Both the position numbers and the translations under genes were made by a program. A DNA stretch of 32,000 nucleotides from Acaryochloris marina S15 (GTDB lineage Bacteria; Cyanobacteriota; Cyanobacteriia; Thermosynechococcales; Thermosynechococcaceae): contig NZ_CP064923.1 of the NCBI RefSeq assembly GCF_018336915.1, positions 4,290,001 through 4,322,000 of the forward strand, given 5' to 3'. The notes under the pieces are model-generated. The model did no database searches. It saw nothing but the letters and a program-made list of their open reading frames with translations, and was not told where the DNA came from. Positions 3,215 to 20,923 of the stretch are shown here, piece after piece (position 1 is the first letter of the stretch; every line of letters begins with the position of its first letter).

Positions 3215-5182
3215 TTAATTTCCAACTTGCTTTACTTCCGCTGTTTGGAGTCGTCTTAATTCTCGCAATGCATCTTGCCGACGTGAATCGTTTCGTTTTT
3301 GGTAAAGATCCGCTGCTTTTTGAAAGTCTGCTTTTGCCCCTTCAATCTCGTTCTGAATCTCTTTTGCAAATCCACGATTGAAGTAGGCAACTGCATAGTT
3401 TGAATCTAAGCGAATTGCCTTGTTGTAATCCTGGATCGCTTCTCGATAATTTTTACGATTATATTTGGCTAACCCACGACTGTTATAAGCATCCACAAGC
3501 TGGTCATCCAGCTCTAGGGCTTTATCAAAATCTGCTAACTCGCCTTCCCAATCCTCTAGTTTCCCTTTGGCATGGGCTCGGCCATTATAGGCATTGGCAT
3601 GATTCCCATCCAGGCGAATCGCCTCATCATAGTCCGCCAAGGCAGAACGATACTTGCCTAGATCGTAGTGAGTTCGGCCCCGATTCCGCAACGTATCGGC
3701 TCGTTTCGGATCAATGCGCAGGGCTTGATCGTAGTCTGAAAGCGCTCCCTGCAAATCCTTGAGGTTATATTTAGACAATCCCCGATTGTGATAGACATAG
3801 GCATATTGAGGATTGAGGCGAATGGCCTGATTGTAGTCCTCTACAGCAGCCTGATAGTTCTGCAGGGCATGTTTTGTCAGCCCCCGATTACCATAAGCAT
3901 TGGCATGTTGGTCGTCTAACTGTAGAGCCTGGTCATAGTCAGACAGGGCAGCCTGATAGTTCTGAAGACTGTATTTGGCTAGACCTCGCTCATTAAAGGC
4001 ATCAGCATTCTGGTCATCTAGGCGAATAGATTCATCGTAGTCTGCGATCGCATCCTTATACTCCCCCTCTCGATACTTCTCATACCCACTCCGGAGCAAG
4101 GCTTCTGATCGGCTCATGGGCGATACGGATTCGGTATCGTTGGCTCGGATCGCGACGTATCCAATCCCTAATACACCTATTAAACCGAGAGATGCGATCG
4201 CAGCCCACTGTTTGCTAGACAATTGGGGGACTCGTGAAAACAGGGAGGCACGAGTGGGTAACGTAATTTTTGGCTGTTGAGGTAAGTCAGGAGCACCCTG
4301 TAGATCTTGCAAGACTTCATTCGCTGACTGGTAGCGTTGGGCAGGCTCAATTTGCAGCAGTTTATCGAAAATTTTCTGGAGATCAGGACTGACGGGTTGA
4401 GCAATATATTGCTGCCAGTTTTCGCTCCAGAGGTAGTTGAATTCCAAAGACAGATGATAGGGCGAAACATGGCTGAGTAGATGGAAACAGCTCGACCCTA
4501 AACCATACAAATCTCCCACAGGGGTTGCTCGACCCCGCTGAATTTGCTCAGGAGACGCATAGCCCGGTGATCCAACAATAGTCCCCACACCAGCATGGGC
4601 CATTGCTGTTTGTTTCAGCAGTTTCGCCACACCAAAATCAATCAGCACATGCTTACCATCTTGACGCCGCATAATATTGTCCGGCTTTAAGTCACGATGA
4701 ATCACGCCCTGGTCATGCAGATTTTGCAGTACCGGCAACACATCTAGTAAGATCCGACGGATTTTATGTTCATCAAAAGTCCCTTCCTTAGCTAACAGCT
4801 CAATCAGGTTGTGGCCATCTACATACTGCTGAACGAGGTATAAATGCTGGCCTTCCTGAAAATAGGCCGTCAATTTTGGGATCTGTGGATGATGTCCTAA
4901 CTGTTTGAGCTGTCGGGCTTCGCTAGCAAACATGTCGATGGCTTTTTGCTGTTCCCAAGCCTCCGTCGCCTGATAGGTCAGCTTCTTGACCACACAAAAC
5001 TCATTCAACCGATCTAGATCTTCAGCTAGGTAGGTATTGCCAAATCCACCTCGACCAAGGGGTTTGATTACCTTAAAGCGGTCCCGCAGCAAATGAACAA
5101 TAGGTGTGCCACATTGCTGGCAAAACTTGTGGGTATCGGGATTAATTGGCTTTTTGCAGTCAGGATTTAGGCAACAAACCAT
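3215..5182 (-). CDS. Ser/Thr protein kinase: 4-Cys zinc ribbon, kinase domain, TM segment, about nine TPR repeats
   Basis: MVCCLNPDCKKPINPDTHKFCQQCGTP, GRGGFGNTYLA, VVKKL, HRDLKPDNIM, DFGVA and GYASPEQ motifs. TM segment AAIASLGLIGVLGIGYVAI. Repeated A..Y..AI.L(D/N)P..A.AY..RG units follow. Confidence 0.9.
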   Translation of the reverse strand: MVCCLNPDCKKPINPDTHKFCQQCGTPIVHLLRDRFKVIKPLGRGGFGNTYLAEDLDRLNEFCVVKKLTYQATEAWEQQKAIDMFASEARQLKQLGHHPQIPKLTAYFQEGQHLYLVQQYVDGHNLIELLAKEGTFDEHKIRRILLDVLPVLQNLHDQGVIHRDLKPDNIMRRQDGKHVLIDFGVAKLLKQTAMAHAGVGTIVGSPGYASPEQIQRGRATPVGDLYGLGSSCFHLLSHVSPYHLSLEFNYLWSENWQQYIAQPVSPDLQKIFDKLLQIEPAQRYQSANEVLQDLQGAPDLPQQPKITLPTRASLFSRVPQLSSKQWAAIASLGLIGVLGIGYVAIRANDTESVSPMSRSEALLRSGYEKYREGEYKDAIADYDESIRLDDQNADAFNERGLAKYSLQNYQAALSDYDQALQLDDQHANAYGNRGLTKHALQNYQAAVEDYNQAIRLNPQYAYVYHNRGLSKYNLKDLQGALSDYDQALRIDPKRADTLRNRGRTHYDLGKYRSALADYDEAIRLDGNHANAYNGRAHAKGKLEDWEGELADFDKALELDDQLVDAYNSRGLAKYNRKNYREAIQDYNKAIRLDSNYAVAYFNRGFAKEIQNEIEGAKADFQKAADLYQKRNDSRRQDALRELRRLQTAEVKQVGN

Positions 5183-5291
5183 TTTTTATGCACTGGGTTG
5201 AGAGTTTGCGAGTAAACACAGTACTCTATCGTTAATCTAACGCTGGCCTATGCATTTTGCAGGATTCAGAATCAAAAAATTGCAGACTGTA

Positions 5292-6287
5292 TTATTTCTG
5301 GGGAACGTAGTCGTGACTGACAAACCAATCGACTGATTCTTGGAGTGCCTGTCGGACTGGGGTTTGAGGCAATCCCAACTCCTGAATAGCTTTGGCAGGA
5401 TTGTAAAACATCATTTGCTTGGCCATTTGTACCCCGGCCAGAGGAACTGATGGCGTCTTACCGACAGATGCCAACACAACCTCATCAATCCAGGCAGTGG
5501 TCAGGGGAATCCAAGCAGGAATTTCGCCTTTAGGCGCTGACAATCCCGTTAACTCAGCCAGCACATCCAGCATTTCTTTCAGGGTCATATTTTGATTGCC
5601 CAGAATATAGCGCTCTCCTGTTTTCCCCTTTTCTAGGGCTAGCAAATGGCCGCGAACCACGTCTTGCACATGAATTAAGTTCAATCCCGTATTTAAGTAA
5701 AAGGGCATCTGCCGTCGCAGAAACCGCAAAATCATATCGCCCGTGGGTGTGGGTTTAATGTCCCAAGGGCCAATGGGGGTACTGGGATTCACAATCACAA
5801 TATCTTGGCCCATCTGGACGGCTTTATGGGCTTCCTGCTCTGCCCAATATTTCGACTTTTTATAGTCACCGATCAGCTTCTCTACGGGACTCTGATAAGT
5901 TTCGTCGGCAATATTCCCTGCTTTAACGCCAATGGCCGCTACTGAGCTGGTATAAACAGTTCGTTCAATGCCCGCATCTCGTGCTGCTTGTAGAAGATTG
6001 CGAGTGCCCTCCACATTGCTTTGCCAAAGCTGATCTCGGTCGGCTCGCCACAGACTGTAATGGGCAGCAACATGAAAGAGTGCCTGACAACCTTGTAATT
6101 TTTGACTTAAGCCATCATCTGTGAGCTGTCCAGACACCTGCTCCACATCTAACCCTGTCAGGTTAGTCAAATCGCTTTGGGGCCTGACTAGTGCTCGTAC
6201 TTGATGGCCTTCCGACAACAGTAAACGGACTAGATTGGCTCCGACAAACCCGGTTGCTCCGGTTACAAAAACATTTAGTTTGGCCAT
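5292..6287 (-). CDS. NAD-dependent epimerase/dehydratase, HpnA-like (hopanoid-associated sugar epimerase / dihydroflavonol-4-reductase-like)
   Basis: N-terminal VTGATGFVGANLVRLL Rossmann motif and a YKKSK catalytic motif. VNPSTPIGPWDIKPTPTG..LNLIHVQDVVRGHLLALEKGKTGERYILG recalls the HpnA family consensus. Confidence 0.75.
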   Translation of the reverse strand: MAKLNVFVTGATGFVGANLVRLLLSEGHQVRALVRPQSDLTNLTGLDVEQVSGQLTDDGLSQKLQGCQALFHVAAHYSLWRADRDQLWQSNVEGTRNLLQAARDAGIERTVYTSSVAAIGVKAGNIADETYQSPVEKLIGDYKKSKYWAEQEAHKAVQMGQDIVIVNPSTPIGPWDIKPTPTGDMILRFLRRQMPFYLNTGLNLIHVQDVVRGHLLALEKGKTGERYILGNQNMTLKEMLDVLAELTGLSAPKGEIPAWIPLTTAWIDEVVLASVGKTPSVPLAGVQMAKQMMFYNPAKAIQELGLPQTPVRQALQESVDWFVSHDYVPQK

Positions 6288-6458
6288 AACTAAGGTTCTT
6301 TGCCACTTCTGGTGGACGAGTAGCGGTAGAGAAGGTTAGTGTTTTACCCTACAGATATAAGCACACCCCTGCAAGTCTAAAGTTCGATGTAGACACCTTA
6401 TTGCGAACAGCCTTGCAATCTATAAAATTCTCAACCTTGGTCTTCTGAACGAACAACC

Positions 6459-6595
6459 GGATAATATCCTTGGAATCGGAGTTATCCAGCGTTGACTTAA
6501 ATAATGTCCTGATCTCGGAGTTATACGGTAGTTGGCGGATAATACCGCTCTAGCCGGAGTTATCAGTCGCCATCCGTATAATTAATAGTTATGCG
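6459..6595. repeat. Tandem direct repeat with 39-bp period, three full units plus a partial fourth; each unit carries a GGATAA...TTATCC dyad
   Basis: CGGAGTTAT cores start at 6477, 6516 and 6555, exactly 39 bp apart. GGATAAT occurs at 6459 and 6537, taaataat at 6498, and gtataat at 6576. The repeat ends 15 bp before the ATG at 6610. Confidence 0.6.
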
Positions 6596-6609
6596 ATTGT
6601 ATACATGAT

Positions 6610-7122
6610 ATGACACCATCGGAATTCAAATCGCGCTTCATCGAGTCGCTGCCGCCAATCCCACCTAATATTGAACTCGAACTGGACCGATTCATCATCT
6701 ATTCACCGGAACGCGTTTCCTTACTGGGCATCCCCGATGAACACAAAGCGTTTCTTCTCGAATCCGGACTCCCCGCTGATGCAGCACCATTTCTGAACTT
6801 CAATAATGACGATCATTCATTAACGGAATTAGAGGGCTTCCCTGGTTCATACATCATCGGATCAAACAATTATGGCGATGCGATTTGCTTGGACGTAGCT
6901 GATGGTGGCACGGTTGTGTCCTACAATCACGACAACATGATGAAACGAGTCTTCATGAATTCATCGCTTCCCTTGTTTGCTGAAACTCTTTGCGCATTCT
7001 CAACTCTTATGCGGACAAAGGATGAAGCCTCATTTACCACACGCTTAAGATTGATCGACCCCGTCGCATTGAGTCCCGATTCATTCTGGACAACCGAGTC
7101 TGCTAGCGTGATGGAACGCTGA
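6610..7122 (+). CDS. SUKH-superfamily immunity-like protein (SUKH-4-like)
   Basis: The layout LLGIPDEHKAFLLESGLPADAAPFLNF..IIGSNNYGDAICLDVADGGTVVSYNHD..VFMNSSLPLFAETL resembles the SUKH-4 pattern: GLP..., IG..G..ICLD..G.V, then fvNSSl..f. Called from memory of the family, not from an HMM hit. Confidence 0.5.
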   Translation: MTPSEFKSRFIESLPPIPPNIELELDRFIIYSPERVSLLGIPDEHKAFLLESGLPADAAPFLNFNNDDHSLTELEGFPGSYIIGSNNYGDAICLDVADGGTVVSYNHDNMMKRVFMNSSLPLFAETLCAFSTLMRTKDEASFTTRLRLIDPVALSPDSFWTTESASVMER

Positions 7123-7208
7123 ATATCGCATAACAATCCATTGCATACGGAGCCGCGGTCCGCGCGGTTTAGTGAGATCAATGTCGTTCACCGCGGCCCG
7201 GTGAATGG

Positions 7209-7315
7209 ATTTACGCAGCAGTTCCATGATCGTATGGCCCCGCTGAGAGTCCAGTACGGCAGTGGGTTCATCCGCCAAAATCAACTTGGGATTTCCGGCT
7301 AACGCTCTTGCGATC
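7209..7315 (-). pseudogene. Relic of a second devA-type ABC ATPase gene (Walker B / D-loop segment only)
   Basis: 96 of 107 nt match 8193..8299 inside the intact ATPase gene. It translates as IARALAGNPKLILADEPTAVLDSQRGHTIMELLRK, then diverges on both sides. It lies inside tracked ORF 7081..7284. Confidence 0.8.
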
Positions 7316-7405
7316 TCGCTCAGCTCTTAACCTCATGCTTTACTGAGCTTGTACAAATCGGGTATGTTTTCCACTTGTCAGCATAGTTATCCACCTAAGT
7401 AAATC

Positions 7406-7927
7406 GTGATTAAACCACCACTTGAGTTCGAAACTCAGTTCATTACTGCTGGATGGACAGGTGATTCACGTGGCTTTCCTCCATCTTTCAACCACCATAA
7501 CCATGTAGGTTGGGATATTTTAGATTCGTTCAATGATATTCACATTCATCCTGAATCATCAACCGGGTTGGAATGTGCTACCAATGACATATATTTTCAA
7601 CTGGTTCAACCGCTCTGTACTTGTGCGGAAAGATGGCAATCTTTACTCCATACAAAGTTTATAGGTGTTGCGTTTACACACAACCAATATGGCATGCTGT
7701 GGGTGGCCACCGATGGGGCCGTTTTCGCCTCCAACGATATTACAGACGTGTTCGAATTTGTTGGGTCGGATATTATGGTCGCTATCCGCAACGAATTGAT
7801 GGGAATTCGCAGTCAACCACTAATGAATGACGATGAATCAGTGCTCAACTACTATGGTGACGCCTACAATAAGAGCGATTCCCGTTTGTTCGACTGGCAT
7901 CTATATGCCTCCCAAAATGGCGGATAA
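7406..7927 (+). CDS. SUKH-superfamily immunity-like protein (SUKH-3-like); GTG start
   Basis: AGWTGDSR, ILDSFNDIHIHP, a tract IYFQLV, and KFIGVAFTHNQYGMLWVATDGAVFAS..FEFVGSDIMVAIRNELMG resemble the SUKH-3 pattern (GW..R, fL..FGGL, IG....g.l.vd..G.vy, al..Ll.G). Confidence 0.5.
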   Translation: MIKPPLEFETQFITAGWTGDSRGFPPSFNHHNHVGWDILDSFNDIHIHPESSTGLECATNDIYFQLVQPLCTCAERWQSLLHTKFIGVAFTHNQYGMLWVATDGAVFASNDITDVFEFVGSDIMVAIRNELMGIRSQPLMNDDESVLNYYGDAYNKSDSRLFDWHLYASQNGG

Positions 7928-8052
7928 AAATGCGATAAATCAAAGTCTCGTAGTCGGATAACTTCGAAGTGGGGTATCAATTCTCACGCCCCGTTTATCG
8001 CAGACGTTATTGTTTTCTAAATTGGACCACCAAACAAAGACAAGATCCAAAT

Positions 8053-8835
8053 CTAAGACTCATGCACAAAGGTGGGATTCGCTGGTTCAGGTGTAATCAG
8101 CCCATCTTCTACATAGACCACCCGATCGGCGATATCCATAATCCGAGGGTCATGGGTCACCATTAGGACCGTGCAGCCTTCTTCCTTAGCTAATTTACGT
8201 AGTAGTTCCATGATGGTATGGCCCCGCTGAGAGTCAAGGGCAGCGGTGGGTTCATCCGCCAGAATCAGCTTGGGATTTCCGGCTAACGCCCTTGCGATCG
8301 CAACCCGTTGCTTTTGCCCTCCAGACAAATCCCGTGGCAGACTTCGAGTTTTATCCGCTAGCCCTACTTGTCTAAGCAACTTGATCGATTGCTTCTTCGC
8401 CGCCCGACCGCGAATCCCCTTTAAATTCAGAGTGGCTTCAATATTCTCCGCCGCAGTTAGGGCAGGAAAAAGATTAAACCCCTGAAAAATAAAGCCGATA
8501 TTCTGCAAGCGAAACTTGGAAAGCTTATGGCGAGATAGCCCCAAAATGTTTTGCCCCAATAAGGAAACCTCCCCACCTGTGGGCGTTAGGATACCTCCTA
8601 ATATGGATAGCAACGTTGTTTTACCAGACCCTGACGGCCCCATCAGCAATTCGACATCCCCGGTTTTAATTTCTAGATCAATGCCTTTCAAAACTTTGAA
8701 CTGCTGATCGCCAACATGGAATGTCATTTCGACGCCCTTGGCCTGAATGGCAGGCGTGGCAAGATCACCAGCAGTATCAGGAGAAGAGGTCATTAATGTC
8801 ATCGGTTGAGGTTTTTGGCGAAAAGCAAGTTGCAT
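8053..8835 (-). CDS. devA: ABC transporter ATP-binding protein, DevA/MacB-type exporter ATPase
   Basis: Walker A GPSGSGKTT, Q-loop, signature LSGGQKQRVAIARAL, Walker B LILADEPTAALD and H-loop MVTHD. It sits immediately downstream of a DevC-type permease gene. Confidence 0.9.
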   Translation of the reverse strand: MQLAFRQKPQPMTLMTSSPDTAGDLATPAIQAKGVEMTFHVGDQQFKVLKGIDLEIKTGDVELLMGPSGSGKTTLLSILGGILTPTGGEVSLLGQNILGLSRHKLSKFRLQNIGFIFQGFNLFPALTAAENIEATLNLKGIRGRAAKKQSIKLLRQVGLADKTRSLPRDLSGGQKQRVAIARALAGNPKLILADEPTAALDSQRGHTIMELLRKLAKEEGCTVLMVTHDPRIMDIADRVVYVEDGLITPEPANPTFVHES

Positions 8836-8896
8836 CAGGTGTATCTAATCCTCTTAACAGGTTTCCCAGTTGAGTCAGTATTGTTTATGCGTTAGC

Positions 8897-10072
8897 TCAC
8901 GACTTAAAGACGAGGGCTGGATCGAGTCGAGTCACCTTTTGAATGGCAAAGATAGCTGCGCCACTACACATGGCTACAGTGACAACAAAAACCCCGGCTG
9001 CCGTTGCTGGACTAATCAAAATTTGAATCGCTTGAGCCTGAATCGTCCAAGCTCCTAAGCCCAAACAAAGCCCCATACCGGGCAAATAACCCAACACCGC
9101 CATCCACAGCGCCTGCTCTAAAATGACGCGATAGATATACCAGTCTGACGATCCCATCGCCTTCATAGTGCCAAACTCCCGCAGATGGTCCGTAACCGAG
9201 GAATAGAGAATCTGGCCCACCACGACGGTTCCAACCACAATGCCCACCACTGCGCCTAAGCCCAAGATGTAGCCGACCCCTGTACTCTGCTGCCAATAGG
9301 TTTGGGTTAATTCGGTTAGCTCAGTTTGGGTGAAGGCTTTGGTGCCGGGTAGAGCTTCTTCTAGACGATTTTTAAGGGCTTGTAGGTTTTCTGTGGGTGC
9401 GGCTTTGATCAGAATATAGGTAATCCGATTTTGATCCGTTAAATCCGGCGGGTCCGGTGGGGTTTTGTCCGGGGTGGCAATCGGCGAATTCAGATAAGCC
9501 GTGGCATTCGGTAAAGACGTAAAAATATAAGGACTCGCCACAATGGAGCGGGTGCCGGTCGTAATCCCTTTTATCTCTCCTTCATAGGAGCCAATTTCAG
9601 CTCGATCGCCGACTTCTGACACATCCAGGAGTTTGAGATCGGCTTGATCCACAAAGATTTTATAGGGCTGCTGGATATCCTTCAGCGTCCCTTCTAATAG
9701 GGTGCGCGGTCGAAACAGGGTATCTTCAGGGTCAAAACCAATAATCCGAATCGGCGCAATCTGATTCGACTTATCTCGCCACACGGTGGATTGGGCAATC
9801 AGTGGTTCTGCCCGCTCCACTCCTTCTACCTCTTTCGCTTCAGCCAGCTGTTTATATTCCAAAGGTAGGGTCAAGGCAAAATGGCGTAGCTCTTCGGAGG
9901 TCACCCAGATATCTGCATCCGCATTTTCGATCAGTACGGTGGAAGAACGAGTAAATCCATTGAGGATACCTATTTGAATAGTGACTAACCCAACGGAAAA
10001 CATGATGCCCGCCTGGGCCACAATAAAGCGCGGTAGGTCTTGGAATAAATTTTTGCGGGCGATAGAAACCAT
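8897..10072 (-). CDS. devC: ABC exporter permease, DevC family (FtsX/MacB-like)
   Basis: N-terminal ARKNLFQDLPRFIVAQAGIMFSVGLVTIQ TM segment and a large periplasmic domain. The C-terminal FtsX-type helices include EFGTMKAMGSSDWYIYRVILEQAL. Arrangement is an operon with devA. Confidence 0.85.
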   Translation of the reverse strand: MVSIARKNLFQDLPRFIVAQAGIMFSVGLVTIQIGILNGFTRSSTVLIENADADIWVTSEELRHFALTLPLEYKQLAEAKEVEGVERAEPLIAQSTVWRDKSNQIAPIRIIGFDPEDTLFRPRTLLEGTLKDIQQPYKIFVDQADLKLLDVSEVGDRAEIGSYEGEIKGITTGTRSIVASPYIFTSLPNATAYLNSPIATPDKTPPDPPDLTDQNRITYILIKAAPTENLQALKNRLEEALPGTKAFTQTELTELTQTYWQQSTGVGYILGLGAVVGIVVGTVVVGQILYSSVTDHLREFGTMKAMGSSDWYIYRVILEQALWMAVLGYLPGMGLCLGLGAWTIQAQAIQILISPATAAGVFVVTVAMCSGAAIFAIQKVTRLDPALVFKS

Positions 10073-10503
10073 TAGTTTACGTCGGGGGGAGATTTAGGGA
10101 GCAATGGCTCACCAGTGGACTTAAATCATCTCAATTAGGTGGAAGCAAACTCTTTTTTCACACCTAATCAGTATAAGCATGATTACCTAAGCCTACAGAA
10201 CTTTGCTGAGAGCTATCTGAAAAGAAGCCGGGTTTACGCTGTAATTTTCAACTCACAACCGCAGCATCAGATGTGCTAAGTCTTAATGTCTAGATGGGAG
10301 ACTGAATCCTTGACTGATATTGCGGGTATTAGGTTCTCTTCCGTGAAATAAGACATGAGAAAATCCAAATGCTACATTTTCCAATAACAAGGTTAAAAAG
10401 AGAGGCAAAAATCTCAGAAAGCTCTATTTCACAGATACAACGCTTTGTATGACCATAGATCAAAGTACGAATGTAGAGGATGACTCACATCGCAATTTAA
10501 TGA

Positions 10504-10794
10504 ATGCGATTGACGTTGTGTATCGCAGTATTGATGAAGCGAAAAACTAGAAAAATCATTGTTGATGGTACTGAGTACCAGTGGATGGTAGAGGAACTCA
10601 TGTGGCCAGACCATGAAGTCCGAATCTGGTGTGAGAGCTTCGGGAAGCGGCTATGGTGCACGGTTAAATTTGCCGAGATTGGTCTTGTTATTCGCCCTTC
10701 ATCAGTTGACAAAATCATTCGATACGCGAATGAGCAGATCCCAACAGATGCTAGTAGTGCTACCCAGTTTGATTGGATAGAGTGTTTTAGATAA
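10504..10794 (+). CDS. Hypothetical small protein; the start may be the internal ATG at 10534 (MKRKTRKIIVDG...)
   Basis: ORF only. It overlaps an opposite-strand ORF (10497..10868). I prefer the + strand for its more protein-like composition and for sharing orientation with the neighbouring cassettes. Confidence 0.35.
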   Translation: MRLTLCIAVLMKRKTRKIIVDGTEYQWMVEELMWPDHEVRIWCESFGKRLWCTVKFAEIGLVIRPSSVDKIIRYANEQIPTDASSATQFDWIECFR

Positions 10795-10916
10795 CAGCTC
10801 ATAGAGACGAACCTATTAATAACAAGTGGATATAGCCAAGTCGAGAGAGGTTTGATGGGGTTAAACACTCACCACCTGTAGACAGCTGATCCTAGACACC
10901 ATAACCAGAAAGGCTT

Positions 10917-11447
10917 ATGACACTTAAAGCAAATTTTGAACTGATGGCGGAGTACAACCAGTGGATGAATAACAGTATCTATTCGGCTGCTTCGCAACTG
11001 AGCGCTTCCGACCTTGCAGAAAATCGCGGAGCGTTCTTCGGGTCCATCATCGGAACGCTTAACCACATTCTGGTAGGGGACACAATCTGGCTGAAACGCT
11101 TTGCTGAACATCCAGCTCAACTCAAATCACTGGAGCACTTTCGCAAGGTGGAGCTGCCAAATGCCCTAGATTCAATCTTGCACGAAAACTTTGAAGAATT
11201 ACGCCAGTCCCGGCTAAAGATGGATCACCTCATTAGAGAGTTTTCTAGCGAATTGACAGACGTCGTTCTTTTATCCTCGCTATCCTATAAAAATACCAAG
11301 GGTGAACCATTTAAGAAAAATATGGGAGCTTTGGTACAACATTTTTTCAACCATCAAACCCATCATCGTGGTCAGGTCACTACGCTTTTAAATCAGGTTG
11401 GGATAGACGTTGGCGTGACTGATCTCTTGGTCCGTATTCCAAGTTGA
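10917..11447 (+). CDS. DinB family protein (four-helix-bundle metal-binding, DinB/YfiT-like)
   Basis: YNQWMN, GTLNHILVGDTIWLKRF and HFFNHQTHHRGQVTTLL, which is the characteristic His triad spacing. Confidence 0.85.
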   Translation: MTLKANFELMAEYNQWMNNSIYSAASQLSASDLAENRGAFFGSIIGTLNHILVGDTIWLKRFAEHPAQLKSLEHFRKVELPNALDSILHENFEELRQSRLKMDHLIREFSSELTDVVLLSSLSYKNTKGEPFKKNMGALVQHFFNHQTHHRGQVTTLLNQVGIDVGVTDLLVRIPS

Positions 11448-11508
11448 TCAAATATAAATATATGCGGGTGTTAGTAAGCATTTGAAAGGCTTTCCGTACT
11501 GATGGAGT

Positions 11509-12327
11509 GTGAAACAGTCAAGCCTTACATTGTCAGACAGTTCATACAGATGGGATGTGACATCCACCCATATCTTGAATACCGTCACCCGTTATGGGGA
11601 ATCACCCCTAATAATAGCTATGTCGAAAAAGTATATTGAGGTTGTTGGAGAAGGATCTTACCAGGAATGTCCTGAGCAAGTCGTTCTTGATGTGGAGCTT
11701 TCAGTTCGATCAGCTAAAGAAGAAAGTGCGGGTAAAGGAAATAGGAAAATTGCAGATGCTCTAGTGAATGAGCTGCTTGAAAGTGGCTTAACTAAAAAGG
11801 AAATTTATTTTGGTGGGCGAGAGTCCTTTGTTCCGTGGTGGAAGCGAAAAAAAGCTGGTCAGGAAACTCGGACGAAGATTACTATCATTTCTTCCAGGCG
11901 AGAGCTTGTCTATCAGGCGACTGAGCAGATTAATCGTTACATAGATAACAAGCGAATTACCGTTGAGGTCTCCGAGAGACAACCTGTCTATAAAGCCCCT
12001 GAGGATGCTGAGTTTGAGGCATTAGAAGCAGCACTAAAAAATGCAAGGGAAAAGGCTGTACATCTAGCTCAATCGGCTTCTTGTGTTCTGGGAGAAGTCC
12101 TAGAAATTGAAGAGTGGAAGAGGAACACCCGTAGTTCCGGTAGCTATGGTGACCCAGATTGGTGGGGTGATTCCGGTGCAATGATGGGTGCGGCAGGTTC
12201 TGCCGGTTTTGATGACGAGCCAGCAAGTTATCTACAAGGGAGCAATAGAACGGTATATGTCAAGCTGAGGGTTCGCTATGAGATCAAACCAGCAGTGCCA
12301 TATAGGTCGATCTTCAATCGAGGCTAA
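11509..12327 (+). CDS. SIMPL-domain (DUF541-like) protein; start uncertain (GTG 11509 or ATG 11620, MSKKYIEVVGEG)
   Basis: IEVVGEGSYQECPEQVVLDVELSVRS and later EAALKNAREKAVHLAQSASCVLGEVLEIEE fit the SIMPL pattern (V.G.G...v.PD.a...v.v, then A..A...A..lA...G..lG.v..I.E). No signal peptide. The first 37 codons overlap a repeated element. Confidence 0.6.
   Translation: MKQSSLTLSDSSYRWDVTSTHILNTVTRYGESPLIIAMSKKYIEVVGEGSYQECPEQVVLDVELSVRSAKEESAGKGNRKIADALVNELLESGLTKKEIYFGGRESFVPWWKRKKAGQETRTKITIISSRRELVYQATEQINRYIDNKRITVEVSERQPVYKAPEDAEFEALEAALKNAREKAVHLAQSASCVLGEVLEIEEWKRNTRSSGSYGDPDWWGDSGAMMGAAGSAGFDDEPASYLQGSNRTVYVKLRVRYEIKPAVPYRSIFNRG
11541..11622 (+). repeat. Cassette-junction repeat, copy A (most complete)
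   Basis: 11547..11598 matches 13229..13280 at 45 of 52 nt. The tail ggggaatcacccctaataatagctatg aligns loosely with sequence right of the IS (14777..14800) and with 7971..8001. Confidence 0.75.
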
Positions 12328-12496
12328 TGATGTTTAGAGGCGATATTTGATCACTATATTTGCTTGCACCTGGCCTAGGCCTACAAACGAATACTCGATA
12401 AACAAACTACTTGTCTCTTCGGTTTGCACTCATGCTAGCAAGGCCATTCGTTAAGCTAAGGTTACCATCTAACAAAATCTTGAAACGCCCACCTTC

Positions 12497-13105
12497 ATGG
12501 AATTGTTAATCTCTTCACTGGAAAAAATCTTGGATGTTTGGAAACAAGATAGAGCAGATTTTATTGAGCTTCTTCAACCAGGCCTCAATATTCAAGACAT
12601 TCAACAATATGTGTCTAATCTGCCATTTCAATTACCTCAAGAAGTTTATCAGCTCTATCATTGGCGAAATGGTGTTCAGATTCTAGAATTCCACGATATT
12701 TCACTTGATTTTATCCCCGGCTTTTGGTTTTTACCATTGGCAGAGACACTCAAGACATATAAGCATTTAAAGGAGTTCAAGAAAAACTGCACTTTTTTAA
12801 AAGACAAAGCCTACCATCGGCCATGGTTTCCTATCTTGAGCAGCGATTTAGGATACTTTCTAGTTCTTGGTGATAGAAATACGTTTATATCCTCTCCTGT
12901 ATTCTTTTTAAGCTGGAATAGCGGAGATTTAACCTTTGAAACTAGATATCCTAGCTTAACTAGCATGATGACCGTAATTGCAGAGTGCTATGAGTCAGGT
13001 GCTTACTACTTTGAGACAAAGGTGATGGATCAATTTGGCACTATTGTTGAATTTTTAGAAGAGGATCCACAAGAAGCTTCTAGAATTAGACTTAAGTATT
13101 TATAA
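12497..13105 (+). CDS. SMI1/KNR4 (SUKH-1) family protein
   Basis: PGLNIQDIQQYVSNLPFQLPQEVYQLYHWRNGV matches the canonical SMI1_KNR4 N-terminal motif (s.eeI...E..l...LP.dy..ly...NG). Later W.P, GD and ECYESGAYY segments also fit. The gene is AT-rich compared with its flanks. Confidence 0.75.
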   Translation: MELLISSLEKILDVWKQDRADFIELLQPGLNIQDIQQYVSNLPFQLPQEVYQLYHWRNGVQILEFHDISLDFIPGFWFLPLAETLKTYKHLKEFKKNCTFLKDKAYHRPWFPILSSDLGYFLVLGDRNTFISSPVFFLSWNSGDLTFETRYPSLTSMMTVIAECYESGAYYFETKVMDQFGTIVEFLEEDPQEASRIRLKYL

Positions 13106-13221
13106 GATGCTGCTTGACGCCTCGCCAAAGTGCTCACTAGTTTGTGCTTAGAAGTAGATATTAATATTGCTCATTTGTGCGGGTGGACATTAGGTTATTG
13201 GCGCCCAGATGAATATAGGAA

Positions 13222-13280
13222 TTCATAACAGATGGGATGCGACATTCACCTATATCTTGAATACTGCCACCCTTCATGGG
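13222..13280 (+). repeat. Cassette-junction repeat, copy B; left part, cut by the IS, with the remainder at 14771..14800
   Basis: See copy A. The repeat ends exactly at the left inverted repeat of the IS. Confidence 0.75.
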
Positions 13281-14707
13281 CTACGGTGTACACATAAGTC
13301 GGTTTTGAGCTATTTCCCATGCAAAGAACATCGTCTCAAACCGTTTTAGGCCATGGGTTAGCGTTGCTGTGCCTGGAGGTCTTTGAGACTGATACCCCTT
13401 CCATCCACCCAGGCGGGCAACAATCCAAGTTGCCCAGGCCAAGGAGTTAATCGGATAAGGATTTTGTAGCTTTGTAGTTTTACCTTGGACTGTGGGGGCA
13501 ATTTGTTTCAGGTATTGCTGCTGTTCATCGGTAAAAGTGATAGATGCAGGCCATTGTGGCTCGTCTCGTCCTTCCACCATTTGCAATGTCGCAATCGCAA
13601 CCGATAAGGCTAAGACGGTGAGGCGCTGAATTGCTTCACCCGATTCGAGTTGCGTCGATTCAAGATCTAACCCCGTCTTCTTGAGTTGCGCGAAAAGCCG
13701 CTCAATTCTCCACCTGAATTTGTACCATTCCAGAATTTGTAGCGCTTGCTCAAGGGATTCCACCGTGTGAGTGGTCAATAAGCGCCAATGAATCGGGTTC
13801 TGACCTTTGGGCGTTGTCTGTTCTACCGCTTCGATGGCATACAGTTGAATACTCGGTGGATAGTCCAATTCCTTCAAATGTTCAGGTCGTTGAATTTTGA
13901 CTGGAGCACAGCGGATCAGTAGCTTTGCATCTCTAGCCATCCGCTGAGTACGGGATTCGTACTCAATCGTAATCGTGGTAAATCCAATCCCCCACCGTGA
14001 TTTGAGATATCCATAGAGTGATTTGGATTGACCTAGCAGACGACGGTCTTGACGAACCCTGACTAGGAGATGATTGAATGCATCGGGAACCGTTGCCCAC
14101 TCTTCATATAAGTCCGATTCTCGGTCACCGATATGAGTGACCAGGCTAGCCCCTCCTGTCTTCAGACAGTGTTGACTTCGCTCAGCAGATGCTAACCATT
14201 TGAAGGATTCTTTCTCCTCAATCGGCAGGTTTTGATATCCTCCTCTATCTTTGACGGTTGGACGATTCGGGTCCCGAGTCCACAGTTGAAGTGCACTCAA
14301 TCCTAACGGGAAACCAGTCCCTGCATCTAAGGCGAGGGTCGGGTGAATAAAAAAGCCCACATCGCGATCATTGCCGACAACACCCAACTCTTCTAGCTTT
14401 AAGCGTCCTGAATGAGATTGTAAGTTGACCTCACTTGTATCACTGACGGCTAAAACGTGTCGTCCTTTGACTTGTTGCTGGCAGTGGTCACAGAGGCTTT
14501 TGACCAACTCAGATATGGACACGTTTTCATTCTCTAAGAAGCGATAGAAGCCCACTTGCTCTGCGCGACCTTGGCTGATTTGACGGATGCTTACGCTCTG
14601 ATGGTGATGAATGGCATCGAATAATGAAGCCCCCTTTTGAGCAAACGAAGGTCGCCAAAGGTAGTTCCATTAATCAGTTCTTCGTGCACCAAAATAGGAT
14701 TTTCCAT
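13281..14707 (-). pseudogene. IS4-family DDE transposase in two frames, with a frameshift at an A4G5 tract
   Basis: From ATG 14707 the frame reads MENPILVHEELINGTTFGDLRLLKRG and stops at 14591. The -1 frame continues as ASLFDAIHHHQSVSIRQISQGRAEQVGFYRFLENENV into the tracked 13281..14555 ORF. The shift maps to ccccctttt at 14630..14638 on the + strand. Confidence 0.8.
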
Positions 14708-14770
14708 ATCTATGAGGATGCTCTATACGACTTCACTACAGTCTAATTCAGACTTGTGTGTACACCGTAG
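13281..14770 (-). mobile_element. IS4-family insertion sequence, 1490 bp
   Basis: Terminal inverted repeats are ctacggtgtacacataagtc (13281..13300) and gacttgtgtgtacaccgtag (14751..14770), matching at 19 of 20. The encoded DDE transposase has the YREK signature (YKFRWRIERLFAQLKK). The flanking 10-mers ccttcatggg and ccatactggg match at only 7 of 10. Confidence 0.85.
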
Positions 14771-14851
14771 CCATACTGGGGTATCGAATCTGTAATCGCC
14801 AACTTCTTTTCCGTCGGCCGCGATTATCGCCTATTCACAGTACTCGCTGGT

Positions 14852-15265
14852 GTGCACAGCCACAACGATGATGTGCCCGTACTTTTCGTACCCCGAGGCT
14901 TACCCGAAGACATATCACAATATATTCACGAGCAGTTTTACGCCGAAATCATTCCCGATGATGCCGATGACCAGAGGAAAAACCTCATGCATGAATGGTG
15001 CTATGAGTCCGATGCCAAGCACTATGTCGCTAAACATAATGCTCATATCAAAGAGTACAAGGATGGCCGTCGTTACGTTTCAGATCCCAACTGGCACCAT
15101 GCCAGCCATTTGACTCGCAATGAAATAATGGATGCCTGCAAACACGCTGGATATGATTTGTCGGATGCGCCGGACGAATTTCAAATGGTAATGGACTTCA
15201 TGCAATCCATTGATGATCGGTTCAGTAATGACGCTTCAAGGATGGTGTTTTGGTTTGATAATTGA
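14852..15265 (+). CDS. Hypothetical acidic protein, probably the 3' part of a gene split by the IS; the frame is open from 14771
   Basis: ORF only. The reading frame is open from the first base after the IS (14771). It is in phase with a short ORF (ATG 13209..13280) that ends at the last base before the IS. Confidence 0.5.
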   Translation: MHSHNDDVPVLFVPRGLPEDISQYIHEQFYAEIIPDDADDQRKNLMHEWCYESDAKHYVAKHNAHIKEYKDGRRYVSDPNWHHASHLTRNEIMDACKHAGYDLSDAPDEFQMVMDFMQSIDDRFSNDASRMVFWFDN

Positions 15266-15481
15266 ATCTGGAAAAACAACCCAACGACCAGATGAACCAA
15301 AACACATTGCACATTCTCTCCCTTCAACAACATCAGCTTCCAGCCCAGTTATCCTAACCGTTAGGCTGCAAGTTGCAACAAGCACACGCTCATTTGGAAA
15401 GTGGGAACGATATGGGCAAAGCGGTTGTTGATCATCTCTAAACATCGAATCCCTTTTGAGTAAATAATAGTTAGGTATCAC

Positions 15482-15985
15482 TTGCATCTACCCATGACTG
15501 AGTCGCCTCGAAATCTTCTCCCGCTATGGGATTATGGTTGGTGTGAGCACGAACACGTTTCACTTCCTCGTTGCCAGTCTCCACAGGACATCATCCGAGA
15601 GTATCGGCTTAGTGAGGTCTTCGGCAATAGTTTCGTCGGCCCAGAACCATCACAAACACCAGAGCTTCACGGTCCATTCCCGAGTTCTTTGATTTCGGAT
15701 TCCGATTTTGAGTTAATTACACCCAAGCGTTTTCAAGAGCTGATTGCAGCCATACCTGAAACTTCAGGTTTCACAGAGCCTCCCACTAACGATCAGTGGC
15801 AATCGGTTCAGCGTCTTGCATCAAAAGTGAGTAGCCGCCATACATGGTTGTTCTGTCTTTGTTTAACTGAAGATGACAAAAAGTGTTTCCATGATTGGGG
15901 TTTTGTACTCACGATTTTTCGGGAGTTTATCTGCGCAAGTCCAGATACCGACTTGGCGGAGCGTTTAGTTTTTGGTTATGACTGA
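15482..15985 (+). CDS. Hypothetical acidic protein; likely start is ATG 15494 (MTESPRN...)
   Basis: ORF only, with no motif I recognise. Same strand and size class as the neighbouring cassettes. Confidence 0.45.
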   Translation: MHLPMTESPRNLLPLWDYGWCEHEHVSLPRCQSPQDIIREYRLSEVFGNSFVGPEPSQTPELHGPFPSSLISDSDFELITPKRFQELIAAIPETSGFTEPPTNDQWQSVQRLASKVSSRHTWLFCLCLTEDDKKCFHDWGFVLTIFREFICASPDTDLAERLVFGYD

Positions 15986-16090
15986 GATCGTGAGGCCTAA
16001 GATAGGCCAAAAGATTGATAACGTTAGCTTTCATCTTTTGGTAAGCGTATAGGATGGGCTAGAGTTTCATTGGTATGATCCTTCCCTTCA

Positions 16091-16975
16091 CTAGCGCTCC
16101 CAAGGCGGAACAGGCTGGAACCGTTCTAGTAGAAAATCAATCATGGCATAAACCTTTGGAGCAATAATCCGACGACTCGGATACAGCAGCCAAATCGAGA
16201 CATCTACCATCAGTGGAAATTCTGGCAGTACCTCAACCAGCAGCCCAGATTTCAAACTTTCACTGGCATTCCAGACAGACTTAATGCCTATTCCCAGCCC
16301 CTGCTCCAGCATTTTACGCAGGGCCTCACCGTCGTTAACCACAAATGAGTGGGGAACGCTAATGGCCTGTCCGTTTTTAAACTTCCACTTCGTCACTTCG
16401 GCCAAGCTGACACATTGATGCGCTGCAAGATCATCAGGCGTTGAAGGCGTCCCATACTCCTCAAGATAGGTGGGAGAAGCGACCAGAATCCGCCGATCAG
16501 CAGCTAACTTTCGCAAAATCAGACTGCTATCGGCCAAGGGGGCATTGCGGATAATCAGATCATAGGCCCCTTCCACCACATCCAACACCTCATCCGATAG
16601 TCGTAAATCAAGGCTGACCAACGGATGGCGGGCATGGAATTCAGCCAAAGCTGGAATGATATACATCCGGCCAAAGGAACCAGGCATGGTAATTCGCAGT
16701 ACCCCTTCCGCCTCTGACCCCTGCCCCTTGACAGCACTTAGCCCCGTTTCTAGGGTTTCAATCATCTGCTGGGCATAGGGCAAAAATGCCTCACCATCAG
16801 TGGTCAAAGAGACAGCTCGGGTGGTTCGGTTGAACAGACGAAAGCCGACTATTTCTTCAAGTTTCACCAGACGGGCACTGGCACTGGCAGGAGATAGGGA
16901 GAGGTCCTGCGCCGCCGCCGAGACCCCACCCCGGGCGGCAATCCTCAAAAACAAACGGAGGGATAAAATATCCAT
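16091..16975 (-). CDS. LysR-family transcriptional regulator
   Basis: N-terminal wHTH LRLFLRIAARGGVSAAAQDLSLSPASASARLVKLEEIVGFRLFNRTTRAVSLTDG. Length is typical for a LysR substrate-binding domain. It is divergent from the operon starting at 17080. Confidence 0.9.
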   Translation of the reverse strand: MDILSLRLFLRIAARGGVSAAAQDLSLSPASASARLVKLEEIVGFRLFNRTTRAVSLTTDGEAFLPYAQQMIETLETGLSAVKGQGSEAEGVLRITMPGSFGRMYIIPALAEFHARHPLVSLDLRLSDEVLDVVEGAYDLIIRNAPLADSSLILRKLAADRRILVASPTYLEEYGTPSTPDDLAAHQCVSLAEVTKWKFKNGQAISVPHSFVVNDGEALRKMLEQGLGIGIKSVWNASESLKSGLLVEVLPEFPLMVDVSIWLLYPSRRIIAPKVYAMIDFLLERFQPVPPWER

Positions 16976-17052
16976 TTATCAAAAATATCCGAATTATTAT
17001 TTCGCTAAAAGCCTGTTTATCTTTCTAATCTAAATAATTATCATGCGGATAA
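16962..17052. promoter_or_regulatory. Divergent promoter region with two GATAA/TTATC dyads (candidate LysR sites)
   Basis: GATAAA-N7-TTTATC lies at 16962..16980 and overlaps the LysR start codon. TTATC-N5-GATAA lies at 17038..17052, about 30 bp upstream of ATG 17080. A strong SD (aaggagg) sits at 17069..17075. Confidence 0.35.
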
Positions 17053-17079
17053 CGGTCAAATGACTCAAAAGGAGGCGAA

Positions 17080-18084
17080 ATGATGAAAGCCATTGGGTAT
17101 CAGGATGCAGGGCCAGCAGCAGATGTCCTGATCGAATTTGAAACAGAAAAACCCCAACCGGGTCCAAAAGACTTACTCGTGGAGGTCCGGGGGGTTTCTG
17201 TGAATCCCGTTGATGTCAAACTAAGGGCCAGTGCTCAACCCGATGGCGAGCCCCGCATTCTAGGGTTTGATGCCGCTGGGGTCGTGCAAGAAGTGGGCTC
17301 AGCCGTGACCCAGTTTCGCCCTGGTGACGAAGTGTTCTATGCAGGAGACATTACTCGCCCAGGAACCAATGCCCCATTTCATGTAGTCGATGAACGGATT
17401 GTGGGTCGCAAACCCTCATCCCTTGGGTTTACAGAAGCTGCTGGCATCCCCCTGACCAGTATTACCGCCTGGGAAATGCTCTTTGATAGCTTTGGACTCA
17501 AAGAAGGTGAAGGCACAGGGGAATCGCTGCTCGTGATCGGCGGTGCAGGGGGTGTGGGTTCGATTCTGATTCAGCTCGCAAAGAAACTCACAGGGCTGAC
17601 CGTCATTGCCACGGCCTCCCGGGAGGATACCCATGCTTGGGTCAAGAAAATGGGAGCAGATTACGTGGTCAATCACCGTAACCCCCTAGACGAAGAGCTG
17701 AAGTTTCTGGGCATTAACCCTCGCTATGTGGCAGCCCTAACCCACACGGATAAGCATTTTGCCGCTATCCGGAAACTGATTAAACCACGGGGGCATATGG
17801 CTCTGATTGATGATCCGGACACTCTGGATGTGATGTCTCTGAAAACCAAAGCGATTTCTTTGAGCTGGGAATTTATGTTCACCCGGTCCATGTTCCAAAC
17901 CGAGGATATGGACGTCCAGCATCAATTGCTACAGCGAGTCTCAGAGTTGCTAGATAATGGCACGCTGATCTCGACGGTCAATCACCATGGTGGCCGTCTC
18001 AATATTGAAAATCTGCGGGCTGCCCATGAATTCCAAGAAAGCGGTAAGGCCATTGGCAAAACTGTATTAGACGGTATTCATTAA
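17080..18084 (+). CDS. Zinc-type alcohol dehydrogenase / quinone oxidoreductase family (MDR superfamily)
   Basis: [28 protein letters not shown] and [15 protein letters not shown] nucleotide-binding motifs. Confidence 0.85.
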
Positions 18085-20915: not shown

Positions 20916-20923
20916 ACTACTTG

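Follow-up and report, generated by a model that had tools for sequence, protein, structure and literature searches.

Candidate orphan SUKH immunity-type genes in two variable segments of the Acaryochloris marina S15 genome

Results

The window, i.e. the whole stretch of DNA that was analyzed, comprises 32,000 nucleotides of Acaryochloris marina S15. A preliminary description had reported eight small genes on the + strand between an hpnA-like gene and a LysR gene, and had proposed that they form an acquired array of SUKH-type immunity genes. The list of open reading frames bears out the eight ORFs (starting at 6610, 7406, 10504, 10917, 11509, 12497, 14852, and 15482), one of which, 14852, is a gene fragment. 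The features of the region are compiled in Table 1.

Table 1. Features of the SUKH-bearing interval and its surroundings
Feature	Position	Strand	Characteristics
SUKH-bearing interval	6288-16090		in the 32,000-nt window of A. marina S15, NZ_CP064923.1
Left variable segment	6288-8052		between devA and hpnA; SUKH-4 gene, devA relic, SUKH-3-like gene
Three imperfect 39-nt direct units	6449-6565	+	upstream of the SUKH-4 gene; exact CGGAGTTAT core in each
SUKH-4 family gene	6610-7122	+	170 aa, net charge -13; PF14435, 56.4 bits (cut-off 25.5)
devA relic (residues about 180-214)	7209-7315	-	90% copy of 8193-8299
SUKH-3-like gene	7406-7927	+	173 aa, net charge -14; PF14433, 18.1 bits (under cut-off 23)
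devA, DevA-family ABC ATPase	8053-8835	-	TIGR02982, 261 bits; conserved core by synteny
devC-like FtsX/MacB permease	8897-10072	-	conserved core by synteny
Right variable segment	10349-16091		between devC and LysR; 86-aa ORF, DinB, SIMPL, SMI1_KNR4, IS-split 177-aa gene, 163-aa gene
Small ORF, no family match	10534-10794	+	86 aa from Met 10534 (ORF 10504); net charge 0
DinB-family gene	10917-11447	+	176 aa; PF05163, 100.7 bits
5' relic of a paralogue of the 177-aa gene	11545-11603	+	about 18 codons (MGCDIHPYLEYRHPLWG); direct repeat with 13228-13282
SIMPL/DUF541 gene	11620-12327	+	235 aa; PF04402, 59.8 bits
SMI1_KNR4 (SUKH-1) gene	12497-13105	+	202 aa, net charge -9; PF09346, 33.1 bits (cut-off 25.4)
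5' end (codons 1-17) of the 177-aa gene, severed by IS	13232-13282	+	
IS4-family insertion sequence	13281-14776	-	transposase 13281-14555; NF033590, 350 bits
3' part (codons 14-177) of the IS-split 177-aa gene	14771-15265	+	acidic
163-aa protein, unannotated family	15494-15985	+	ORF 15482; acidic

Membership in the SUKH superfamily was defined as a profile-HMM match above the curated gathering score of Pfam. Three genes had been assigned to the superfamily, and the profile searches left this idea standing in part: the SUKH-4 and SMI1_KNR4 genes scored above their cut-offs, whereas the match of the third gene, 7406-7927, was sub-threshold (E-value 0.0031). All nine members of the small family of the latter matched SUKH-3 (best E-value, 3.5e-7), and three of its relatives have a precomputed PF14433 match, so it is best described as a probable, marginal SUKH-3 relative that lies under the Pfam cut-off. 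Comparison of the alignment of this family with that of the SUKH-4 family using hhalign revealed no relation, both alignments being shallow, and the AF2 model of the protein was of low confidence (mean pLDDT 38.8). Sequence searches of the PDB with the three SUKH proteins or their families yielded nothing significant. NCBI gives the name "SUKH-4 family immunity protein" to the Moss Beach orthologue (Acaryochloris sp. 'Moss Beach') of the SUKH-4 gene, the identity being 99%. A. marina MBIC11017 keeps only a 3' remnant of the SUKH-3-like gene (L002, 1908-2060).

The claim that at least one gene is clearly AT-rich was confirmed for the SMI1 gene, which has a GC content of 0.36 versus 0.476 for the window; the composition of the other cassettes lies inside the range of the core genes. 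The SUKH-4, SUKH-3-like, SMI1, 177-aa, and 163-aa proteins are all acidic, with net charges of -9 to -14. Three small acidic unknowns had also been noted; the label fits ORFs 14852 and 15482, but not the product of 10504, which has no net charge. Upstream of the SUKH-4 gene, where tandem repeats had been described, three imperfect units do exist, with CGGAGTTAT cores at 6477, 6516, and 6555, each preceded by ATAAT, but TRF did not call a tandem repeat at this left border. These units may represent a regulatory repeat.

The assignments of the DinB and SIMPL cassettes were verified by their Pfam matches, and the true start of the SIMPL gene is Met 11620 rather than 11509, in accordance with the gene call in loci L074 and L075. 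DinB is absent from the text portion of the immunity catalogue of Zhang 2012 (PMC3482391). The presence of an insertion sequence was likewise verified: the IS4-family element has inverted repeats of 22 nt (13279-13300 and 14751-14772), and it is missing from locus L074, which is otherwise 99% identical. ORF 14852-15265 is the 3' part of a 177-aa gene that was interrupted by this element. What had been called a recurrent junction element exists as a direct repeat of 53 nt with 87% identity (11546-11598 and 13228-13280), the copies of which flank the SIMPL and SMI1 genes; however, there are only two copies, and the repeat is a relic of the 5' end of a gene. For the 163-aa protein, 73 relatives were found among 1.8 billion representatives. 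Its AF2 model is confident (pLDDT 93), and a fold search with this model gave no significant match, including to any immunity protein. In two contexts elsewhere, a member of this family stands alone among housekeeping genes.

The devA and devC genes lie inside the proposed island and are, by synteny, conserved core genes and not cargo. Because these two genes split the interval, it consists of two independent variable segments, and the notion of a single acquired island or array was overstated. The term array also overstates the content: only three of the eight cassettes are immunity-type, DinB and SIMPL are not immunity families, and one of the unknowns is the gene disrupted by the IS, which has relatives in phages. 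Among the SUKH cassettes, only the SUKH-4 and SUKH-3-like genes neighbor each other, with a gap of 283 nt that contains the devA relic, and the third is 4.6 kb distant.

A toxin or delivery domain was found neither in any ORF of the 32-kb window nor in the leftover ORFs of at least 50 aa that were scanned on either strand of the region, in agreement with the preliminary description. No gene of the window lies immediately 3' of a toxin with a delivery domain, the arrangement that marks cognate immunity. A toxin gene adjacent in a corrected assembly, which would have spoken against the idea, was not seen; the same toxin-less layout was present in two related, independently assembled strains (L072 and L074) and in a second assembly of the window sequence (L001). 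Across the 32 kb, no secretion gene or recombinase was detected, and the only mobile-element gene is the IS4 DDE transposase.

Comparison among strains revealed that the 6.3-16.1 kb segment is not syntenically conserved, which leaves intact the proposal that it was acquired. In more distant relatives (loci L007, L011, L012, L017, and L018), devC, devA, and hpnA are adjacent, with a devA-hpnA gap of only tens of bases, and this was the ancestral arrangement at the left site. Here MBIC11017 bears other cargo, about 8 kb in all, which includes a paralogue of FtsH, two 3' fragments of devA, a DUF7716 gene, two small unknowns, and a small gene pair without a Pfam match that we read as toxin-antitoxin-like. 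The same hotspot harbors a different SMI1_KNR4 gene (34.6 bits) in L005, an IS66-like gene in L004, and a gene for a 498-aa unknown in L003, and a methyltransferase is also among the hotspot cargo of other strains. In strain Moss Beach, 3.3 kb of unrelated sequence takes the place of the right segment. The segment occurs in the strain of SRR17348482, but lacks the IS there, and locus L074 shows this IS-free form. Identity to Moss Beach is 99-100% over the block 6412-10348 (dS 0-0.03), as against 88-96% for hpnA and a kinase gene (dS 0.37 and 0.15, respectively).

A relic of a duplicated gene had been noted, and this is the copy of a devA stretch between the two left SUKH genes. Its 5' boundary lies at a degenerate HIP1 site (GAGATCGC). 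Copies of devA 3' fragments start at the only HIP1 site of devA (GCGATCGC) and fall into at least two junction classes, which may be incompletely independent events. The reported scarcity of HIP1 sites was reproduced, as a single site in 9.8 kb, at 8294-8301 inside devA; yet it is not significant from this window alone, because there is no site over 8302-26671 either. Pooled across strains, the hotspot cargo contained 0 HIP1 sites in about 34 kb, whereas the flanking core had 42 in about 75 kb.

Discussion

On balance, we lean towards the view that the region comprises two accessory-gene hotspots that gathered orphan SUKH immunity-type genes together with unrelated accessory cargo. These would be independent flexible-genome hotspots on either side of an ancestral devC-devA-hpnA string in the chromosome of the A. 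marina group, in which cargo of foreign origin would have built up piecemeal by recombination. Three kinds of footprint would have been left by this process: duplicated gene fragments beside inserts (the devA 3' fragments with their 5' ends at HIP1, and the 18-codon relic), the IS insertion, and a mosaic of homologous exchange among strains. We regard the three SUKH proteins as most probably orphan proteins of the immunity type, with a presumed immunity function. As such, they would be small acidic cytoplasmic binders that neutralize the C-terminal toxin domains of the polymorphic toxins of neighbors, and their genes might be retained without a cognate toxin as pre-emptive protection. Points that speak against this reading are the sub-cut-off SUKH-3 match, the core-like composition of all cassettes save SMI1, and the solitary occurrence of the 163-aa family.

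Not all SUKH proteins are immunity proteins, as exemplified by Syd of E. coli and Smi1/Knr4 of yeast. A less likely reading is that the segments are generic flexible-genome hotspots in which the SUKH genes are incidental, e.g. encode ligand- or protein-binding regulators of the Syd or Smi1/Knr4 kind, and that the "array" is a coincidence in a genome rich in SUKH paralogues. Because only three cassettes are immunity-type and only two of these are adjacent, the SUKH enrichment could indeed be due to chance in such a genome. Incidental cargo would also account for the five of eight cassettes that are not immunity-type, for the mostly unrelated cargo of other strains (FtsH, methyltransferase, IS66-like, toxin-antitoxin-like pair), for 32 kb without a toxin, secretion gene, or recombinase, and for the interrupted spacing of the adjacent SUKH genes, which do not form a tight operon. 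However, SUKH genes recur at the same hotspot across strains, with SUKH-4 and SUKH-3-like genes here and an SMI1_KNR4 gene in L005, which speaks against incidental cargo. In addition, where the SUKH-4 and SUKH-3-like genes have relatives at other loci, these likewise occur in toxin-less series of small ORFs, and SUKH-4 relatives stand beside an Imm32-like gene, as in a run of DUF6348, an unknown, SUKH-4, DUF4279, Imm32-like, and DUF6891 genes. Strong acidity, small size, and dispensability from strain to strain also fit immunity-type proteins.

SUKH genes normally sit after their toxin, and signs of decay and rearrangement are clear in the region (relics of devA and of the 5' end of a gene, plus the IS). 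Nevertheless, it is very unlikely that the region is a decayed polymorphic-toxin locus, from which the toxin was deleted or lost via the IS and the immunity genes were left. The scanned leftover ORFs contain no remnant of a toxin domain, the intergenic gaps do not exceed about 460 nt, and three sister or related strains have no toxin either. Because devA and hpnA were adjacent at the ancestral left site, the SUKH genes came in as inserts and are not what a resident toxin operon left behind.

An anti-phage defense island or a prophage remnant is equally improbable: the intact 177-aa protein matches phrog_10141 (function unknown) over its full length (E-value 2.7e-13), and one SUKH-4 relative adjoins a D5-type primase, a hint of an integrated element there, but PADLOC gave no meaningful match for any cassette, PHROGs gave no significant match for cassettes other than that of the 177-aa protein, a tblastn search of 50,697 phage records with this protein found nothing, and the window contains no phage structural, integrase, or replication genes.

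Comparison with known systems

Both toxin-less polyimmunity loci and immunity proteins of the SUKH superfamily are already established (Zhang et al. 2012, PMC3482391), and the concept of orphan or "polyimmunity" SUKH genes is not new but dates from 2011-2012 (Zhang, Iyer and Aravind 2011; PMC3482391). The polyimmunity class compared here, which has been reported only in proteobacteria, bacteroidetes, firmicutes, and actinobacteria, is defined by genes from known immunity families that lie in tandem and co-directionally with no toxin next to them, at least four of them in "extended" loci, and by gene numbers and types that vary among strains of one species (PMC3482391). The present region resembles such loci in its toxin-less, co-directional small genes, several of them SUKH genes, in its small acidic proteins, and in its strain-variable content, which was evident from MBIC11017, three IP29b MAGs, and Moss Beach. 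It differs in that two SUKH genes are adjacent and one is distant, that the other cassettes match no immunity family, that devCA, DinB, SIMPL, and the IS are interspersed among the SUKH genes, and that no XerC/D-type recombinase adjoins. It is a small, fairly ordinary case of the known orphan-immunity pattern, not a dedicated immunity island.

The likeness to the acquired interbacterial defense clusters AID-1/2 and rAID-1 of Bacteroidales (Ross et al. 2019, bioRxiv 10.1101/471110), which had been pointed out before, holds for content but not for architecture. Shared features are consolidated orphan immunity-type genes without a toxin, signs of horizontal acquisition (here HIP1-free cargo and one low-GC gene), and strain variability. 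Unlike rAID-1, the region has no 5' XerD-like tyrosine recombinase or other recombinase domain, no repetitive, integron-like sequence common to its intergenic regions was found, and a clearly low GC content is limited to the SMI1 gene. Because a recombinase and integron-like junction repeats are absent, the comparison is an analogy of content only.

Orphan toxin/immunity modules occur downstream of cdiA or rhs genes. As in these modules, 3' fragments of an upstream gene, here devA, have been displaced and recur between cassettes, and by analogy the repeated fragments would be the footprint of recombination-driven cassette turnover. In contrast to the cdiA/rhs modules, the repeated gene encodes an ABC-transporter ATPase instead of a toxin, the cassettes run antisense to the fragments, and the fragments begin at a HIP1 palindrome and not at a pre-toxin motif (VENN, PxxxxDPxGL). 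Published work on HIP1 deals with the recombination of plasmids and the efficiency of transformation in Synechococcus PCC 7002 (Akiyama et al. 1998, cited in PMC5861425; Kamoku and Nielsen 2024, bioRxiv 10.1101/2024.09.10.611283). Unlike that work, the present case is a comparative footprint in natural Acaryochloris genomes alone, in which the end-points of the devA fragments coincide with the GCGATCGC site, as in HIP1-associated recombination in cyanobacteria.

Gene content and strain of origin

The host of the window is a cyanobacterium of the Acaryochloris marina group. Its hpnA-like protein was 97% identical to its counterpart in A. marina MBIC11017, the SUKH-4 protein was 99% identical to a protein of Acaryochloris sp. 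'Moss Beach' (CP071717), and positions 3124-9872 matched exactly a Logan contig of run SRR12447961 (L001). The preliminary description had listed eight small plus-strand ORFs between the hpnA-like gene and the LysR gene, and all eight were recovered when the ORFs were counted. The gaps between the genes of this interval did not exceed about 460 nt, and scans for promoters and terminators yielded nothing above chance level. The LysR protein of the window is intact (294 aa), whereas in Moss Beach (L072, 17032-17917) the gene is broken into two ORFs of 198 and 111 aa and is probably a pseudogene.

Features of the hpnA-LysR interval (window positions; scores are Pfam bit scores)
Feature	Positions	Strand	Assignment or remark
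hpnA-like gene	5292-6287	-	left border
CGGAGTTAT cores	6449-6565		three exact copies
inverted repeat	6580-6597 / 7125-7142		18 nt, imperfect
SUKH-4 gene	6610-7122		56.4 (cut-off 25.5)
devA relic	7209-7315		5'-truncated; junction 7305-7315
SUKH-3-like gene	7406-7927		SUKH-3, 18.1, E-value 0.0031 (under cut-off 23)
devA	8053-8835	-	inside interval
HIP1 site of devA	8294-8301		GCGATCGC
devC	8897-10072	-	inside interval
DinB gene	10917-11447		100.7 (cut-off 23)
SIMPL gene	11509-12327		59.8 (cut-off 25.2)
relic of 177-aa gene paralogue	11545-11603		18 codons of the 5' end
SMI1_KNR4 gene	12497-13105		33.1 (cut-off 25.4)
177-aa gene, codons 1-17	13232-13282		split by IS
IS (whole element)	~13281-14776		from comparison with L074
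IS4-family transposase	13281-14555	-	inside interval
177-aa gene, codons 14-177	14771-15265		split by IS
163-aa protein gene	15494-15985		no Pfam match
LysR gene	16091-16975	-	right border

Two hotspots flank the conserved devCA genes

The interval had been proposed to be a single acquired immunity island. This did not hold: a more fitting description is a pair of hotspots of the flexible genome, one on each side of devCA, in which three SUKH-type orphan genes have accumulated along with cargo unrelated to them. In more distant relatives, devC, devA and hpnA are contiguous, and hpnA is separated from devA by some tens of bases (Acaryochloridaceae SU_2_1 and OTE_25, a Thermosynechococcaceae MAG, Aphanocapsa sp. 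and Altericista). Judged by this gene order, positions 6288-8052 are an insertion site, and devA and devC are core genes rather than cargo.

The strain comparison also confirmed that the segment is not syntenically conserved, as the cargo differs in MBIC11017, in three IP29b MAGs (L003-L005) and in Moss Beach. At the left site, MBIC11017 (L002) carries about 8 kb of other cargo. Two copies of devA truncated at the 5' end occur there, along with a paralogue of FtsH, a DUF7716 gene, a pair of small genes and two further small genes without annotation; of the SUKH-3-like gene, a remnant of the 3' end is kept beside devA. L005 shares the pair of small genes with MBIC11017 and has, besides a methyltransferase gene, an SMI1_KNR4 gene (34.6 bits) that differs from the one in the window; the cargo of L004 includes an IS66-like gene and that of L003 encodes a 498-aa protein without assignment. 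Collinearity between Moss Beach and the window covers 3212-10348 and resumes over 16092-19580, and positions 10349-16091 are swapped for an unrelated 3.3 kb with another IS and a 145-aa ORF. The right segment is present without the IS in a 99%-identical strain (SRR17348482, L074).

Two details of the cargo were also recorded. The FtsH paralogue is full length in the MBIC11017 hotspot (L002, 2172-4079), and L004 (74-628) has only an N-terminal fragment. The gene pair common to L002 (6890-7530) and L005 (6330-6970) is a conserved module encoding proteins of 122 and 90 aa; it is read as toxin-antitoxin-like and had no Pfam match.

Family assignments of the cassettes

Three ORFs had been recognised by their motif layout as SUKH-type. 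HMM searches placed 6610 and 12497 above the Pfam cut-offs, whereas 7406 scored below. The Moss Beach orthologue of 6610 already bears the name SUKH-4 family immunity protein at NCBI. For 7406, only 8 relatives were detected among 5.8 billion clusters; all nine members of this family matched SUKH-3, the lowest E-value being 3.5e-7. As the AF2 model derived from the shallow alignment of these nine sequences was unusable (pLDDT 38.8), the SUKH membership of 7406 is probable rather than established. Comparison of the SUKH-3-like and 163-aa families with the SUKH-4 family by hhalign, using shallow alignments, revealed no relation. The ORFs 10504, 14852 and 15482 matched no Pfam or NCBIfam family, and a homologue search with one chimeric query joining these three gave no match. 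The SUKH-4, SUKH-3-like, SMI1, 177-aa and 163-aa proteins are acidic, with net charges of -9 to -14; the 10504, DinB and SIMPL proteins are not. The SMI1 gene, with a GC content of 0.36, is the sole composition outlier; for two of the window's core genes the value is 0.389.

Comparison with L074, in which the 177-aa gene is intact (10108-10641; N-terminus MGCDIHLYLEY), showed that the IS has split this gene in the window. ORF 14852, previously taken as a separate gene, is thus the 3' fragment. The intact protein matched phrog_10141, a family without assigned function (E-value 2.7e-13). The same comparison set the SIMPL start at 11620. What had been called a recurrent junction element turned out to be a 53-nt repeat in two copies, one being an 18-codon remnant from the start of a paralogue of the 177-aa gene; the pair forms a direct repeat that flanks the SIMPL and SMI1 genes. 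The motif TATGCGAT was likewise discarded as a junction element, its two exact copies forming an inverted repeat and its other matches mostly parts of HIP1 sites. The repeat is imperfect (83% complementary), has one arm on either side of the SUKH-4 ORF, and holds TATGCGAT together with the complement ATCGCATA. The CGGAGTTAT cores lie a short distance upstream of the start codon of SUKH-4 and are spaced by exactly 39 nt, each preceded by ATAAT; they could be a set of binding sites of a regulator.

The 163-aa protein belongs to a family with 73 relatives at E-values of at most 1e-3 among 1.8 billion representatives. Its members have about 160-170 aa and conserve W20, H63-G64-P65-F66, F146-x-E148 and a C-terminal G-x-D. 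For the 163-aa protein itself, AF2 gave a confident model (pLDDT 93.3). A Foldseek search with it found no significant neighbour in the PDB and nothing in BFVD; Maf1 was the top PDB neighbour but was rejected as a fold match (E-value 8e-3, TM 0.4-0.5). Two relatives are solitary among housekeeping genes, and thus nothing ties the family to toxins.

Absence of toxin genes

Domain searches of the 32-kb window bore out the earlier statement that no toxin or delivery ORF lies on either strand: toxin, delivery, secretion and recombinase domains were found in none of its genes, nor in those leftover ORFs of at least 50 aa that were scanned on both strands of the region. The toxin-less layout recurs in Moss Beach and L074, two related strains with independent assemblies, and in L001, the window's own sequence reassembled. 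Neither the decay of a former toxin locus nor a prophage was retained as an explanation, and PADLOC returned no defence-system match. An origin of the cargo from Acaryochloris plasmids was not supported by the plasmid searches, since the sole plasmid matches of the right segment in blastn were to DinB in Providencia and tblastn with the 163-aa and 177-aa proteins found none. A tblastn search of the 177-aa protein against phages also gave no match.

HIP1 sites, devA fragments and the origin of the cargo

The most interesting by-product of the analysis is the combination of devA fragment junctions at a HIP1 site with hotspot cargo that is free of HIP1. All 5'-truncated devA copies, i.e. the relic in the window and the fragments in L002-L005, start at the single HIP1 site of devA. 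The junctions outside the window lie at about 6513 and 7593 in L002, 123 in L003, and 5930 and 7033 in L005, and they fall into at least two classes. In the first, the junction coincides with the site's left edge, in the variant GAGATCGC (window, L003, fragment A of L005); in the second, it is in the middle of the site (fragment 2 of L002, fragment B of L005). These positions suggest that HIP1 serves as an end-point of rearrangements. Full gene, insert and 5'-truncated copy follow one another in the order expected after a putative Campbell-type integration of a circle with a 3' fragment of devA. HIP1 has been linked to plasmid recombination (Akiyama et al. 1998, as cited in PMC5861425) and to Chi-like stimulation of transformation (Kamoku and Nielsen 2024, bioRxiv 10.1101/2024.09.10.611283). 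The devA end-points are a concrete natural example that bears on the long-open question of the role of HIP1.

HIP1 scarcity had been taken as a sign of accretion. Within the window alone the argument is not significant, because the whole of 8302-26671 also lacks HIP1. When strains were pooled, about 34 kb of hotspot cargo contained no site, with about 19 expected, versus 42 sites in about 75 kb of flanking core, although some cargo is common to strains and the effective sample is therefore smaller. The pooled cargo comprised window 6495-8052 and 10349-16091, L002 1774-9779, L003 1-3059, L004 1-6478, L005 3759-9769 and L072 13754-17032. The absence of HIP1 supports the view that this cargo is foreign or recent. 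The HIP1-free 10.6 kb at 16091-26671 hold ordinary-looking metabolic genes (LysR, ADH, ECH, luciferase-like, SDR, BON, GGDEF and part of AcnB), and the stretch from LysR to SDR has a GC content of 0.52, above the window average.

Identity to Moss Beach over 3212-19580 is mosaic, with blocks of 99-100% (3412-4011, 6412-10348, 18492-19091) between blocks of 88-96%, the latter range including hpnA and the kinase gene. Correspondingly, dS values were 0.37 for hpnA and 0.15 for the kinase gene versus 0-0.03 for SUKH-4, SUKH-3-like, devA and devC. This mosaic indicates that the block 6412-10348 was recently exchanged by homologous recombination between strains, and that such exchange is frequent.

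Comparison with known immunity-gene arrays

Family membership, acidity, dispensability and context together make an immunity function of the SUKH genes a reasonable prediction. Little work has addressed interbacterial antagonism in cyanobacteria. Should the SUKH genes prove to neutralise toxins from outside, contact-dependent warfare between bacteria would be a force that shapes the accessory genome of a biofilm- and host-associated cyanobacterium.

In other assemblies, the genes related to 6610 and 7406 likewise have series of small ORFs as neighbours, most of these without annotation and none of them a toxin gene. One locus (L073) has the order DUF6348, unannotated, SUKH-4, DUF4279, Imm32-like (26.8 bits), DUF6891; in others, a SUKH relative lies in a run of 116-154-aa ORFs (L076), downstream of a D5-type primase (L077), or among small ORFs and housekeeping genes (L071). 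These runs show the same pattern as the polyimmunity loci (Zhang et al. 2012, PMC3482391), but the present locus falls short of that class. The preliminary description was largely right in its facts; the orphan-immunity concept is already established, and the locus is a modest, partly annotated instance of it.

An integron-like or rAID architecture was rejected; the 5' XerD-like recombinase and the repetitive intergenic sequences that define rAID-1 (Ross et al. 2019, bioRxiv 10.1101/471110) are absent from the present locus. A more far-reaching proposal, which we regard as unlikely, is that the devA-hpnA junction is a recombinase-free hotspot of cassette capture. Recombination at the HIP1 site of devA and homologous exchange among strains would supply it, and selection would keep immunity-type orphans in stock there, namely the SUKH-4, SUKH-3-like and SMI1/KNR4 genes and perhaps those of the acidic families without annotation. 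The junction would then be a HIP1-dependent, differently built cyanobacterial counterpart, in function, of the Bacteroidales acquired interbacterial defence clusters.
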